Virus record (IMG/VR): IMGVR_UViG_2713896784_000025
Source: a virus
Lineage: Duplodnaviria; Heunggongvirae; Uroviricota; Caudoviricetes
DNA: 12,452 bases
Direction: 5' to 3' (one strand)
Shown here one piece after another: positions 666-9,451 of the stretch (position 1 is the stretch's first letter; every line of letters starts with the position of its first letter). A program made the position numbers and the translations under genes. The notes under the pieces are model-generated. The model made no database searches. It worked only from the letters and a program-made list of their open reading frames with translations, and was not told where the DNA came from.

Positions 666-834
666 AAGTGCGGGTGCGTTGAGGATGCCTGATTCATCAG
701 AGGTGGCGAGGGATTTCTCCCNNNNNNNNNNNNNNNNNNNNNNNNNNNNNNNNNNNNNNNNNNNNNNNNNNGGCTTTTCTCTATCTGCCGTTGGTGTTCA
801 TGCCCGAGGCAGATAGCCTCAAGCACCCGCAGCT

Positions 835-864
835 ATTCTACTTAACTTCCCATTACCTCGCCAA
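835..864 (-). promoter_or_regulatory. Sigma70-like promoter candidate driving a short leftward transcript
   Basis: Minus strand TTGGCG (864-859), 18-nt spacer, TAGAAT (840-835). A 9-bp perfect hairpin (781-789/808-816) and the terminator at 639-665 lie downstream, giving a predicted RNA of about 190 nt that spans the N block. Confidence 0.35.
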
Positions 865-1263
865 TATGAAATCGGTCAGAAAGACAGACGTCCCATAAGG
901 ACAACAACGGAAAAAGAGATTTTGCTTGATGCTATTTACCTCTGCACCATGAAGTTGCGCCAAAATCCCAGTGGTGATAACAGGAATTTGGTTGTTGGTG
1001 ATTGGGGAAAGAAGTACGTTAGACTGTGGGTTAGTTCATTGACATGATAGTTACCTGCCTTCAATTTCCTAAGCAAGCGATGTAAACGATAATCAATATC
1101 AAATGTATTGACAGGTAAAATAATAACGATGTACCTTTGCTGATAACATATATCAGTCTTAAATCATAATGGAGGTAGATAAAATAACTAAACACACACA
1201 ACAAATTTTTTATCAGTGACATAGCATATCTTAAGCATCCTTTAATGCTCATGGGGAGAACGC

Positions 1264-2037
1264 ATGACTAAACATATGGACATTCATTGTCAAACACGCA
1301 TATTTAACTCAATTAACCATGACACCAAATATAAAATATGTATTTTTACTCCAAAAAACATTAAAAAAAATAATGCAACTCTTTATATACTTGATGGGAA
1401 TAGTGCCAACAATTACATTTCTGATATTCTGCCTGTTATTGATGCACTACCCAATCCACCAGTGTTAGTTACACTTGGTTATGAATCTTGGAATAACCTT
1501 AGCATTCATCGCCGTGCTTACGATTATACTCCTGATGGTGAAAATGCTATTGTTGATAACTCTAAACCAGCATGGATCTACTTTACTGGTGGAGGAAGCC
1601 AGTCTTTCCGAGAATTATTACTAACTCAGATCATGCCATGGGTTAGTACTATTGCTCCGAACAGTTCCAGAATCGGTATATGGGGACACTCGCTAGGTGC
1701 TATTTTTGTGCTTGATTGCTTAAAAAATAATTCATGCTTTAACTATTATTATATATCTGCACCATCACTTCTATGGCAGAATGAAAGAATCATCAAGATA
1801 ATTAAAGATGATATATCAGAATCAAAGCACACTAAAAGTATATGCTTGCTTAACGGAAATCTTAGCCTTGATTACTCCGCATCTTTATATCCTGAAGCCA
1901 TCAAAGCGGAATCTGTTTTGAGAAATATTTTGACAGAAAAATACAGTAATTTTTCTATTGTACAATTTCCAGAGCTCAATCATCAGGAGACTTTCTCTGC
2001 TGCACTCTGGAATAGCATTATTCATTTCAGCATATAA
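1264..2037 (+). CDS. Esterase-family alpha/beta hydrolase (siderophore-esterase-like 'putative esterase' fold), 257 aa, on an AT-rich island
   Basis: ATG at 1264 preceded by GGGGAGA; stop at 2037. Motif string YILDGNSA ... GGGSQSFRELL ... IGIWGHSLGAIFVL ... YISAPSLLW matches the esterase-family pattern with a G-H-S-x-G nucleophile elbow. No N-terminal signal peptide. Gene and flanks are far more AT-rich than the rest of the window. Confidence 0.8.
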   Translation: MTKHMDIHCQTRIFNSINHDTKYKICIFTPKNIKKNNATLYILDGNSANNYISDILPVIDALPNPPVLVTLGYESWNNLSIHRRAYDYTPDGENAIVDNSKPAWIYFTGGGSQSFRELLLTQIMPWVSTIAPNSSRIGIWGHSLGAIFVLDCLKNNSCFNYYYISAPSLLWQNERIIKIIKDDISESKHTKSICLLNGNLSLDYSASLYPEAIKAESVLRNILTEKYSNFSIVQFPELNHQETFSAALWNSIIHFSI

Positions 2038-2388
2038 CAGAAAATATGTAATCACTTTATCAATCTAGCTAACATAACTGATATCAATCCTAATGGGTCT
2101 TTGAACATATTAAAAGATAACTTCTCATTTGTACATTGTTGTGTTCTTAGACCCATTTCAAAAATACTATTTTTTAGATACTAATAATTACATCCATTTA
2201 GCTATCTTCTAAATACTCCTCTCAGTTTCTTCATTGGAGCTGATTCAACTCCGGCAATGCATACTAGGATCATTTTATAAGCATACAAACAACATCCAGA
2301 CTGTGAATTATTGCTATTCATTTTCTATGTATCTGCTCTTTTCCCATCCACTGAAACACCAGAATCCAAAGGTTTCATGTTATTTTCA

Positions 2389-2802
2389 CTATTCCATCAT
2401 TACTCCTGTGTAAAATATCAAAACTCGCTGCATCACTTCACTGTTACGGCACTCACTACAAATTATGTTCAATTGCCTGTCATAGCGGCGTATTTCTCCG
2501 TCTGGTAATGACCAGATAAGGTCAGGATCAACCACAACCGGTTTCTTCAGTTTTGCCCTCGATAGTTTTTTGCGGGCGTTTTGCCAGTCCTTACGAGCCT
2601 GTTCAGATGGGAATAACCCGTAACCAGAGTTGTATACATCGCCACTGGCAACCAGCTCTCTGGCAAGAACGCTCATCAGATATCTTGTCGCACCTGTCTT
2701 GGCTTCCAGTTGCCGTAACGTCTCGCGCCCACTCCGGCGTACTAGCTCAACAACCTGCCCTTTAATTTTTTCCCGCTCTTCCTGTGTAAATACTTTTGCC
2801 AT
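2389..2802 (-). CDS. Hypothetical prophage early-region protein (about 137 aa)
   Basis: ATG at 2802 (MAKVFTQEEREK...) preceded by GGAGG at a 5-nt spacing; the track's start at 2817 is a TTG. The last ~25 codons run into AT-rich island sequence. Confidence 0.6.
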   Translation of the reverse strand: MAKVFTQEEREKIKGQVVELVRRSGRETLRQLEAKTGATRYLMSVLARELVASGDVYNSGYGLFPSEQARKDWQNARKKLSRAKLKKPVVVDPDLIWSLPDGEIRRYDRQLNIICSECRNSEVMQRVLIFYTGVMME

Positions 2803-3121: not shown

Positions 3122-3171
3122 NNNNNNNNNNNNNNNNNNNNNNNNNNNNNNNNNNNNNNNNNNNNNNNNNN

Positions 3172-4313: not shown

Positions 4314-5516
4314 TCACCCCCTGAATCCCGGCGGAATTTCGGTATCCGGTTCAGAAATATGATTCACACAACGCTGGTTGTTCGTGCCGCTTACCGGGAG
4401 CAACCAGGGGTTTTCAAAATTCCGGTCCGGCCCAAAAAACGTCGTCGCTCGCTGAACAAATTCCGTTCCCGCTTTCCCGGTCGCCGCCAGGTATCTCGCG
4501 TAACGCCTCACACCATCCAGCATGGTCTCTGGTGGCACCCCCTCGCGCAATCTGGCCTTCCAGGCACTGAAAGCGGATTTCTTCGGGTTTGCCCCAGCAC
4601 GCAACGGGTATTCCCGCCAGACCTGTTCGAACACATCCGGATAATCCACTCGTCCCACAGACTGCCCGGTGCTTTCCGGGACTACCCGATCGGCTTCCCG
4701 CTGAATGGCGGAATCGGCTTCAGGCTGCTGCAGTTGGTGTGATTGCTCCGACCCTGCGGTCATCACCTGCTGCACAGCGCCCGAATCGGCTTCCGGTGTC
4801 GTGCCTGCTGGCTGACCAGGATTGACGGTCTGAACATCCCCTGCCTGGTTCGTGGTGTTTTTTTTGCCATGAACCATAGTGTTTTTGTCCTGTTCCTGTT
4901 CTTTCTCCTGCTCCTGTTCCTGTTCTTGGCTTCGAAGCCCCTTAAAAGCCCCTTCGAAGCCCCTTACCGAATTTCGGCTATTATTCCGCCTCACATCCAG
5001 ATGGAAATCCGTTTTATATCTGTCGTAAAACACTGACAGAAAAGCGTTTTCAGGTAATGATGCATACTCATTCCTGACACCTGCACAACGGTTATCGCCA
5101 GGCTTCAACGTTTCCCCAACCTGCCAGGCTGCCATTTCATGGACCCAGACCATCTCTGCATCATGGTCATAGCTACAAAAACCAGCTTCAACAGCCCTTT
5201 TAAGCCCCTTTGAAGCCCCTTCCAGACCAAGCCCGGTTTCATGAGCAAGGTATAAAACTGGCAGGTAATACAAACCCAGCATATTTGCGTGAGGGGATGT
5301 CATCAGGTAAAAAGCAACAACTTGCGCTTCTGCACCCGCCTTTCTAAGTTCTCTCCCCGTTTCTCCCAGCCAGAATCGCGGAGAAACTTTTGCGTAATCA
5401 CGCATGGCTACCTCATCTGGTGCCGAACCTTCCTCCGGATATAATCTGTGGTTCCCAATCGACAGAACCAGAGGAGGTTCGACATGTATTTTTTGAAAAG
5501 CCTTTATCAGGCTCAT
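4314..5516 (-). CDS. Replication initiator / replisome organiser (lambda O / YdaU position), 400 aa; alternative start at 5408
   Basis: Directly upstream of and nearly abutting the DnaC-like gene. Contains a QEQEQEQEKEQEQ low-complexity linker and a duplicated EGA[F/S]KGL peptide encoded by iteron-like DNA repeats. ATG at 5516 has no clear ribosome-binding site; the ATG at 5408 (MRDYAKV...) follows GAGG. Confidence 0.75.
   Translation of the reverse strand: MSLIKAFQKIHVEPPLVLSIGNHRLYPEEGSAPDEVAMRDYAKVSPRFWLGETGRELRKAGAEAQVVAFYLMTSPHANMLGLYYLPVLYLAHETGLGLEGASKGLKRAVEAGFCSYDHDAEMVWVHEMAAWQVGETLKPGDNRCAGVRNEYASLPENAFLSVFYDRYKTDFHLDVRRNNSRNSVRGFEGAFKGLRSQEQEQEQEKEQEQDKNTMVHGKKNTTNQAGDVQTVNPGQPAGTTPEADSGAVQQVMTAGSEQSHQLQQPEADSAIQREADRVVPESTGQSVGRVDYPDVFEQVWREYPLRAGANPKKSAFSAWKARLREGVPPETMLDGVRRYARYLAATGKAGTEFVQRATTFFGPDRNFENPWLLPVSGTNNQRCVNHISEPDTEIPPGFRG
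4898..4975. repeat. Hexamer tandem repeats (CTGTTC/CTCCTG-type) followed by three direct repeats of GAAGCCCCTT; iteron-like cluster 1
   Basis: 4898-4937 carries about 6-7 hexamer units; (G)AAGCCCCTT copies at 4944-4953, 4956-4964 and 4966-4975. Confidence 0.5.
5193..5222. repeat. Iteron-like cluster 2: two further (G)AAGCCCCTT copies plus a degenerate one
   Basis: AAGCCCCTT at 5203-5211 and GAAGCCCCTT at 5213-5222, about 250 bp from cluster 1 and inside the same gene. Confidence 0.45.
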
Positions 5517-7364: not shown

Positions 7365-7556
7365 ATGGGTACAGCCCTTTCTCCGATAGTTTCAGAATTC
7401 GAAACTACCGAACAAGAAAACAGTTACAACGAATGGTTGCGCACTAAAGTAACGTCAAGCCTTGCAGACACTCGCCCCGCAATTCCACATGACGAGGTAA
7501 TGGCTGAAATGGAAAATCTTATTGCTCAAATTGCTGTAACTAACAAGAGCGAGTAA
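7365..7556 (+). CDS. paaA2: Type II antitoxin partner of ParE (PaaA2-like), 63 aa
   Basis: GGAG ribosome-binding site; stop TAA overlaps the ATG of the downstream toxin (TAATG). Size and sequence (SEFETTEQENSYNEWLRTKVTSSLADTRPAIPHDEV) fit my recollection of PaaA2; symbol is tentative. Confidence 0.7.
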   Translation: MGTALSPIVSEFETTEQENSYNEWLRTKVTSSLADTRPAIPHDEVMAEMENLIAQIAVTNKSE

Positions 7557-7843
7557 TGTTACCCATTTTATGGCTACCGTCTGCTCGCGATGATTTGCGC
7601 CAGATCATAACTTACATCGCCAAGGAGAACCCACCGGCAGCACGTAGACTAAAAATACGCATTGAAACATCGGTATTACCTCTATCTGAGCATCCGTACT
7701 TATATCCACCAAGCGAACGGGTTTCTGGATTGAGAGAGATCGTGACCCACCCTAACTACATAATCCTGTACAGAGTAGCTGCTTCAAGCATTGAGATTGT
7801 AAGCGTGACACATTCTCGGCGACAATTTCCCTTCTCTATCTGA
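7556..7843 (+). CDS. parE: ParE/RelE-superfamily toxin (ParE2-like), 95 aa
   Basis: MLPILWLPSARDDLRQIITYIAKENPPAARRL...LSEHPYLYPPSERVSGLREIVTHPNYIILYRV: the characteristic ParE N-terminal helix and core. Translationally coupled to the antitoxin. Confidence 0.85.
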   Translation: MLPILWLPSARDDLRQIITYIAKENPPAARRLKIRIETSVLPLSEHPYLYPPSERVSGLREIVTHPNYIILYRVAASSIEIVSVTHSRRQFPFSI

Positions 7844-7933: not shown

Positions 7934-8125
7934 TAGATTACATACACCAACCACCCACCCCGCCCCACAGAACGCCGGGCAATACTTCGAGTTACCAAGC
8001 AGTGGTCAGGGGGTAAGTAGCCAGCCCGAGGCGTATGAACATGACGGCAGGGTTCAACTTTAATAACTATGCAGCNNNNNNNNNNNNNNNNNNNNNNNNN
8101 NNNNNNNNNNNNNNNNNNNNNNNNN

Positions 8126-9367: not shown

Positions 9368-9404
9368 CGCTGCAACGCCCTCTGTTATCAATATTCTGGT
9401 GACA

Positions 9405-9451
9405 TTTGGCGGTATCAGTTTTACTCCGTAACTGCTCTGCCGCCCTTTTTT
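9405..9451 (+). terminator. Weak intrinsic-terminator-like element (plus strand)
   Basis: GGCGG ... CTGCCGCC with a long loop, followed by TTTTTT at 9446-9451. Confidence 0.25.

Follow-up and report, generated by a model that had tools for sequence, protein, structure and literature searches.

The window, that is the whole stretch of DNA that was analysed, is a 12,452-nucleotide (nt) Caudoviricetes virus record (IMG/VR IMGVR_UViG_2713896784_000025). It matches, at 100% identity, part of the lambdoid prophage Sp4 (CP-933M) in Escherichia coli O157:H7 strains Sakai and EDL933, namely its early region. Near its left end, a block at 830-2510 carries a single gene, the subject of this work, whose product is a predicted serine esterase of the family of the siderophore hydrolase IroE. 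The coordinates of the window are compressed relative to the genome, because three masked runs of 50 N (722-771, 3122-3171 and 8076-8125) replace longer DNA. At 722-771 the mask hides 279 nt including hokD (from the related locus L007), and at 3122-3171 it hides 99 nt within the DUF1627 gene.

The GC content is 35.0% in 830-2510 versus 48.6% across the remaining window. In 100-nt windows the block falls to 22-38% GC, the minimum of the window, and the dips to 38-42% seen elsewhere are none as low. The sole long open reading frame (ORF) in the block, at 1264..2037 on the + strand, encodes 257 amino acids (aa) and has a GC content of 34.4%, with 27.9% at third codon positions (GC3), compared with a GC3 of 47-61% in the flanking DUF977, dnaC-like and O-like genes. 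It corresponds to ECs_1077 / EDL933_RS06180 / WP_000160654, annotated as "alpha/beta hydrolase". To the right of the block lie DUF977, DUF1627, the dnaC-like gene and the O-like gene, and to the left hokD, DUF968, rusA and Q. Because all of these neighbours are on the - strand, the esterase gene is convergent with the early-right operon, which must transcribe across the block to get to Q. The first-pass annotation had described an AT-rich island with one gene opposite to the surrounding operon, and both parts of that description are confirmed. The main features of the locus are as follows.

722..828, - strand: hokD/sok locus, left flank, with hokD beneath the N mask 722-771 and a sok RNA fragment at 780-828
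884..2410, no strand: replaceable cargo block (island) flanked by hokD/sok on the left and by the 3' end of the DUF977 gene on the right, delimited by homology breaks against L003
926..1012, - strand: remnant of an antirepressor gene (Ant/ORF6N/P22AR C-terminal), scar of earlier cargo, 76-83% identical to the 3' end of ant genes
1264..2037, + strand: coding sequence (CDS) of the predicted leaderless IroE-family serine esterase, 257 aa, PHROG 8493
2389..2802, - strand: gene for DUF977 / Ren-like exclusion protein (phrog_142 match), right flank, final gene of the replication module

At 780-828 (- strand) we observed the 5' part of the sok antitoxin RNA (RF01794, E=4e-6), cut by the mask, which places a type I hok/sok toxin-antitoxin locus immediately left of the island.

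The DUF977-hokD cargo slot

Superimposing the window on the QueH-carrying prophage L003 (strain EC958, ST131) revealed that homology is lost at 883 and comes back at 2411. The replaceable block is therefore 884-2410, a little narrower than 830-2510. In related prophages the same DUF977-hokD interval holds different cargo.

L003: QueH alone
L004: QueH, KwaA/KwaB (Kiwa) and relBE-flxA
L005: a small methyltransferase, DUF4014 and hypothetical genes
L029: a type II restriction enzyme and a C5-methyltransferase
L030: PD-T7-1, an integrase and hypothetical genes

Among this cargo, the recognised anti-phage systems are KwaA and KwaB (E=1e-101 and 3e-159), PD-T7-1 (E=7e-157) and the type II restriction enzyme with its methyltransferase. 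The defence cargo lies at 4448-6087 in L004, 882-4083 in L029 and 4244-5593 in L030. In L030 the slot also encodes two unannotated proteins (326 and 314 aa) without a PADLOC match, which could be unrecognised defence genes.

The DUF977-hokD interval is thus a real cargo hotspot, as the first-pass annotation had proposed, and lies at the ren/nin boundary; comparison of the locus across related prophages shows that the slot content varies and that the island is not universal. The parallel drawn there with trkG of the Rac prophage was wrong, since trkG in E. coli K-12 lies beyond the rzpR/rzoR lysis-gene remnant, in a separate late-region slot. A closer K-12 parallel is offered by the Qin-like prophage L004, in which relBE, ydfV and flxA adjoin hokD in the DUF977-hokD interval.

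We searched the block edges for flanking direct repeats, insertion sequence ends and attachment-site-like repeats, and none was found. The block is therefore taken to move via recombination in the conserved flanks, not by transposition. The antirepressor scar at 926-1012, a RefSeq pseudogene fragment, is present in the O157 allele of the locus and absent from the loci of a 90% allele, whose homology starts at 1011. Like the lambdoid morons and prophage hotspots (lambda rexAB, bor and lom; P2/P4), the block is a single opposite-strand unit of foreign composition in a variable slot, present in some and absent from other otherwise homologous prophages. It differs from those morons in its cargo, a siderophore-esterase homologue.

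The encoded protein

All the motifs on which the first-pass annotation had based an esterase assignment are found in the protein: YILDGN at 41-46, TGGGS at 108-112, GHSLG at 141-145 and SAPSLLW at 165-171. The membership of the siderophore-esterase family, which it had read from them, is borne out through direct comparison only. A phmmer search against the PDB returned IroE (E=5e-26), Bacillus BES (9e-13) and PfeE (1.5e-11), followed by fungal siderophore esterases. The function-unknown PHROG 8493 represents the same family.

An AlphaFold2 (AF2) model was built from an alignment of 71 sequences, the query and 70 homologues; a single-sequence AF2 model with a predicted local distance difference test score (pLDDT) of 47 was discarded. 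The model from the alignment has a pLDDT of 90.4 and a predicted template modelling score of 0.91. By comparing it with the PDB in Foldseek, we found that ranks 1-30 are all IroE, BES, PfeE, EstA, EstB or Shewanella IroE-like structures (E 4e-19 to 6e-14), with a template modelling score (TM) of about 0.8 to IroE and PfeE. After rank 30 there is a four-log gap, the next class being feruloyl esterases and Fes at about 1e-10. On the grounds of sequence and predicted structure, the product is assigned to the IroE/PfeE/BesA siderophore-esterase fold family.

In the alignment, Ser143 and His240 match 2gzr_A chain positions 149 and 247, which are IroE residues 189 and 287, with a single offset of 40 (phmmer). 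The catalytic dyad of IroE is Ser189/His287 (PMC10515146). Each of Ser143 and His240 is conserved in at least 90% of the 71 sequences. By the same offset, Asp44 and Arg84 map to IroE Asp90 and Arg130, for which Larsen and colleagues reportedly described an active-site role in 2006. D44, R84 and D87 do not vary in any of the 71 aligned sequences, and the query retains 27 of 28 invariant or near-invariant positions (hand check), the exception being G146, which is Ala. The sequence thus predicts a serine esterase with its conserved catalytic residues intact.

The nearest relatives of the protein are distant. No identity between 33% and 83% occurs among 1.8 billion representative proteins, and outside Escherichia identity is at most about 33%. 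The closest match there is a Duffyella/Pantoea megaplasmid protein, at 32%; canonical plasmid IroE shares 29% identity with the phage protein. The gene of the Duffyella/Pantoea relative adjoins a major facilitator superfamily (MFS) transporter gene with no evident siderophore cluster, and its context is uninformative. Because of the long branch of the phage clade, its placement in the neighbour-joining (NJ) tree is unreliable.

The N-terminus of the protein, MTKHMDIHCQTRIFNSINHD, is hydrophilic and has no hydrophobic stretch, and the lack of a signal peptide claimed earlier thus stands. A longer reading frame is impossible and the start is fixed, because an in-frame TAA lies at 1243-1245, 18 nt upstream, and the Shine-Dalgarno-like sequence GGGGAGA precedes the ATG. 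The first residue of the protein corresponds to IroE residue ~45, and the anchor or signal and the PLGxNIADxGS segment of its nearest relatives are absent. We searched upstream for a leader remnant by tblastn with the leader peptides of homologues, and nothing fell below E=0.1. An N-terminal hydrophobic signal is present in the four distance-nearest homologues (P0023-P0026) and in most of the 67 outgroup homologues. There is a leaderless BesA-like clade, and in the NJ tree the phage protein falls outside it. From these comparisons the leaderless state looks independently derived, and the esterase should remain in the cytoplasm. For reference, IroE is periplasmic and Fes is cytoplasmic (PMC7403778).

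Comparison with known systems places the protein in an established enzyme family, as a new and divergent member without a leader, and its gene in a familiar type of genetic niche, with nothing mechanistically surprising. IroE, the salmochelin/enterobactin trilactone hydrolase of the iroA locus (PDB 2GZR/2GZS), is the best match in both sequence and structure (Foldseek E=4e-19, TM ~0.8). Both proteins have a single lidless alpha/beta-hydrolase domain, and equivalents of the Ser/His dyad, Asp90 and Arg130 are found in the phage protein. However, the phage protein is only 27-29% identical to IroE and lacks its first ~44 residues (anchor/signal), so that a periplasmic location is not expected; its gene is prophage-borne, AT-rich and outside an iroBCDEN cluster. 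With no leader and no iro linkage, it is not a strict IroE orthologue.

BesA/BES, the Bacillus bacillibactin esterase (PDB 2QM0), shares the fold family (E=9e-13, Foldseek E=4e-18). BesA and the leaderless IroE-like enzymes are cytoplasmic and free iron from an imported catecholate trilactone, and they are probably the closest model of how the phage enzyme works. The phage protein nevertheless lies outside their leaderless clade, being distance-nearest to signal-bearing proteobacterial enzymes, with an identity to BES of 19-21% (Foldseek). PfeE of Pseudomonas aeruginosa (6GI0-6GI5, TM 0.75-0.80) and Cee of Campylobacter have the same fold and a catalytic serine. Both are periplasmic and encoded beside TonB-dependent receptor genes (PMC8001512), and the phage esterase has neither trait. 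Fes, the cytoplasmic enterobactin esterase of E. coli, is alike in presumed compartment and substrate and only a distant structural match (E ~1e-9). By analogy, the phage enzyme would be BesA/Fes-like in compartment and task, and closest to IroE in fold.

Among 5426 complete E. coli genomes, 471 carry the gene, 458 of them at 99% identity or more; these 458 are mostly O157:H7, and also O145 and O103:H2. The gene is found in E. albertii as well. Three allele groups are observed, the O157 type and two others at 92% and 89-90% aa identity to it. They share the length of 257 codons, the start and the slot, show no indels, and are all linked to the same DUF977/DUF1627 genes. The ratio of nonsynonymous to synonymous substitutions (dN/dS) among the three groups is 0.17-0.25, with dS up to 0.31. 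Between alleles, identity is 90.8% in the CDS, 87% in the upstream flank and 76%, with indels, in the downstream flank. Because codon number, start and slot are constant at such a dN/dS, the gene is maintained, and the leaderless form is old and under purifying selection.

Occasional broken copies were noticed: L025 4001-4770, an IMG/VR contig with a 1-nt deletion; P0017, a frameshifted 209-aa product in a complete genome; and H96, with 75% of the gene only, in strain 12689. A further copy (H151, NZ_CP124741.1 30059-30829) is identical and sits on a 286,775-bp record labelled as an EDL933 plasmid, the size and content of which suggest a chromosomal fragment filed as a plasmid.

Among the isolated phages of INPHARED there is no DNA-level copy of the gene, and the protein-level matches, all below 30% identity, come from what are apparently contigs of bacteria or canonical iroE-like genes. 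A scan of contigs with one genome per species revealed no relative, and the viral structure set BFVD contains no protein of this fold subtype. A phage-borne member of the IroE/PfeE/BesA family appears to be unreported.

Around the gene we notice several candidate regulatory sites.

1082..1100, + strand: Fur-box-like sequence GTAAACGATAATCAATATC, 15/19 to the consensus, ~165 nt upstream of the ATG; a weak lead
1139-1155, + strand: perfect palindrome CTGATAACATATATCAG, within the conserved upstream block 1139..1170
1143-1170, + strand: candidate promoter-like sequence ATAACA-16-CATAAT; promoter-like sites in the region are no more numerous than in shuffles
1253..1259, + strand: Shine-Dalgarno-like GGGGAGA, 5 nt before the ATG, conserved in the 91% allele
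2092..2157, + strand: long hairpin followed by a T-rich tail, 55 nt past the stop codon, a candidate terminator for the + strand only

Positions 1085-1157 are almost invariant between alleles, and the Fur-box-like site scores 14/19 in the L006 allele (hand count from the alignment). The hairpin has a folding energy of -23.6 kcal/mol, with z=-3.9 on the + strand and z=-1.7 on the - strand, and is poorly conserved in the 91% allele. The Fur-box-like, promoter-like and hairpin sites are leads, none of them statistically or comparatively secure. A 63-aa hydrophobic ORF at 1061..1252 (- strand) was dismissed, its frame being broken by a 1-nt indel in the 91% allele, and the small ORFs within 2038-2388 are unsupported. 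No RNA family was detected within the island by an Rfam scan, even at a permissive threshold.

Proposed function and rival explanations

We favour the reading that the gene is a lysogen-expressed moron encoding a cytoplasmic ester-siderophore hydrolase, which would act most plausibly on enterobactin-type trilactones. Judging from sequence and model, we give this reading a probability of about 0.5. The block would be a self-contained, horizontally acquired transcription unit (a lysogenic-conversion moron) inserted between the replication module and hokD with the nin/Q genes. In the proposed reaction, His240 would activate Ser143 to cleave the esters of a macrocyclic ester-linked siderophore, in a site lined by Asp44 and Arg84. 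The likeliest substrates would be enterobactin-type catecholate trilactones, either the imported ferric complex or the newly made compound, giving linear dihydroxybenzoylserine (DHBS) oligomers as products. The lysogen may thereby gain a second, Fes-independent route of iron release or siderophore remodelling. Because the gene faces against the early-right operon, its own promoter would drive it in the repressed prophage, and antisense transcription would overrun it during lytic growth. The hairpin at 2092-2157 could end the esterase transcript while letting antisense read-through pass.

Several observations weigh against this reading. O157:H7 already has Fes, and a second cytoplasmic enterobactin esterase is without obvious added value. 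In every locus examined the gene is surrounded by phage replication, hok/sok and nin/Q genes, with no linked siderophore receptor, transport or biosynthesis gene. With an identity of ~30% to any characterised esterase and an isolated position on a long branch, the specificity of the enzyme may have shifted. The first-pass annotation had suggested Pfam esterase models as a check of the family; PF00756 (Esterase) stays below threshold (17.0 bits, cut-off 22, E=0.005), and the family is seen by direct comparison instead. A profile search of NCBIfam with the product gave no match either; curated profiles miss it because the lineage is too divergent. For the Fur-box-like site, 12 of 300 composition-matched shuffles of the island (~4%) reach at least 15/19, which makes it weak. 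The AT content of the block likely leads to silencing by H-NS under laboratory conditions. A search of the literature by locus tag, accession and concept found no paper mentioning the gene. Finally, by association, three of the six alternative cargo sets that were compared in the slot (those of L004, L029 and L030) contain anti-phage systems.

The last point bears on an alternative in which the esterase is an anti-phage or superinfection-exclusion factor that protects the lysogen. It might destroy a small molecule or an ester-linked structure needed by the incoming phage, or shift the expression of TonB-dependent receptors through iron status. The identical slot holds the Kiwa pair KwaA/KwaB, a type II restriction-modification pair or PD-T7-1 in those prophages, the neighbouring DUF977 protein matches a PHROG named 'Ren-like exclusion protein', and the orientation of the gene makes its expression independent of the lytic operon. 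Yet the slot also carries non-defence cargo (QueH, orphan methyltransferases), the product has no match among 5027 PADLOC models (E<=1), and it lacks a sensor, nuclease, NTPase or membrane-effector partner. Its fold points specifically to siderophore hydrolases, and no defence system is known to use an IroE-type esterase. We regard a defence role as quite unlikely. The enzyme may instead have kept the IroE fold and act in the cytoplasm on something other than a siderophore, such as an ester from the host or microbiota, a depsipeptide, a microcin-siderophore conjugate or another metabolite. Its ~30% identity to the nearest relatives, with nothing at 33-83%, the long branch on which the phage clade stands alone and the absent linkage to siderophore genes would be consistent with such a shift, as would the relative in Duffyella/Pantoea (32%), beside an MFS transporter and not in an evident siderophore cluster. 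All 30 of the 30 best structural matches, bacterial and fungal, are siderophore hydrolases, however, and the family-invariant residues are kept; we consider a non-siderophore substrate unlikely.

Another alternative is a silent or decaying passenger, an IroE-like gene that lost its leader at capture, is silenced by H-NS, is of no use to the lysogen and persists solely by hitch-hiking with the prophage. A dN/dS of 0.17-0.25 without indels across three allele groups (dS up to 0.31) argues against decay, as do the conserved start codon and Shine-Dalgarno sequence, a CDS better conserved than both flanks, and intact catalytic and family-invariant residues. A passenger would nonetheless account for the absence of a leader that P0023-P0026 possess, the very AT-rich block, the broken copies (L025, P0017, H96) and the adjacent Ant-gene scar, which shows that the slot gathers debris. 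The odds of this explanation seem low to us. Extracellular action is very improbable. It would have the enzyme released through phage lysis of a subpopulation or type III secretion, degrading or pirating the siderophores of competitors. Phage cargo of enterohaemorrhagic E. coli (EHEC) does act outside the cell, as with Shiga toxin (Stx), the NanS-p esterases and the effectors encoded outside the locus of enterocyte effacement (non-LEE effectors). Most members of the esterase family are, moreover, periplasmic (PMC8001512). On the other hand, the gene runs antisense to the lytic operon, which makes induction together with lysis unlikely, and it lies outside the late region and the effector loci and encodes no recognisable secretion signal.

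A bolder version of the favoured reading, which we hold to be improbable, is that the phage captured a normally periplasmic siderophore esterase and re-targeted it to the lysogen cytoplasm, as a new prophage function in a defence hotspot. One option is that apo-enterobactin would be linearised prior to export. Linear DHBS trimers made by IroE shield Salmonella from peroxide, and E. coli is without an IroE homologue (PMC7403778). In the other option, TonB-dependent receptors for phages and colicins would be lowered through an altered iron/Fur status, and EHEC-type prophages would thus have their own, metabolic form of superinfection exclusion.

An active enzyme would mean a phage-delivered second route of catecholate-siderophore processing in O157:H7, in other Shiga-toxigenic lineages (O145, O103:H2) and in some E. 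albertii, which could bear on iron acquisition, oxidative-stress tolerance or gut competition. The assignment of a siderophore esterase to a phage would, moreover, be a first. Iron-acquisition inventories miss the gene because curated profiles fail to recognise its product. If the enzyme is inactive or redundant with Fes, the gene is one more uncharacterised moron. The more generally useful outcome is the DUF977-hokD hotspot, a compact and well-delimited interval in Rac/Qin/Sp4-type lambdoid prophages that is practical for mining defence and accessory genes.

Other features of the window

Outside the island, we observed a complete DicF antisense small RNA at 9394-9445 on the + strand (Rfam RF00039, 76.9 bits, E=6e-16). 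It precedes dicB/ydfD-like genes, an arrangement shared with Qin-type prophages. At 4314-5516 on the - strand, a 400-aa ORF occupies the position of the replication initiator (O-like). Pfam gave no match to it at E<=0.1, and in the Sakai annotation it is a phage replication protein with a more internal start. Two overlapping ORFs of 63 and 95 aa at 7365-7843 (+ strand) form a type II toxin-antitoxin pair adjoining the repressor gene. In O103:H2 they carry the annotations RelB-family antitoxin and RelE/ParE-family toxin, and the Sakai annotation reads 'plasmid stabilization system protein'.

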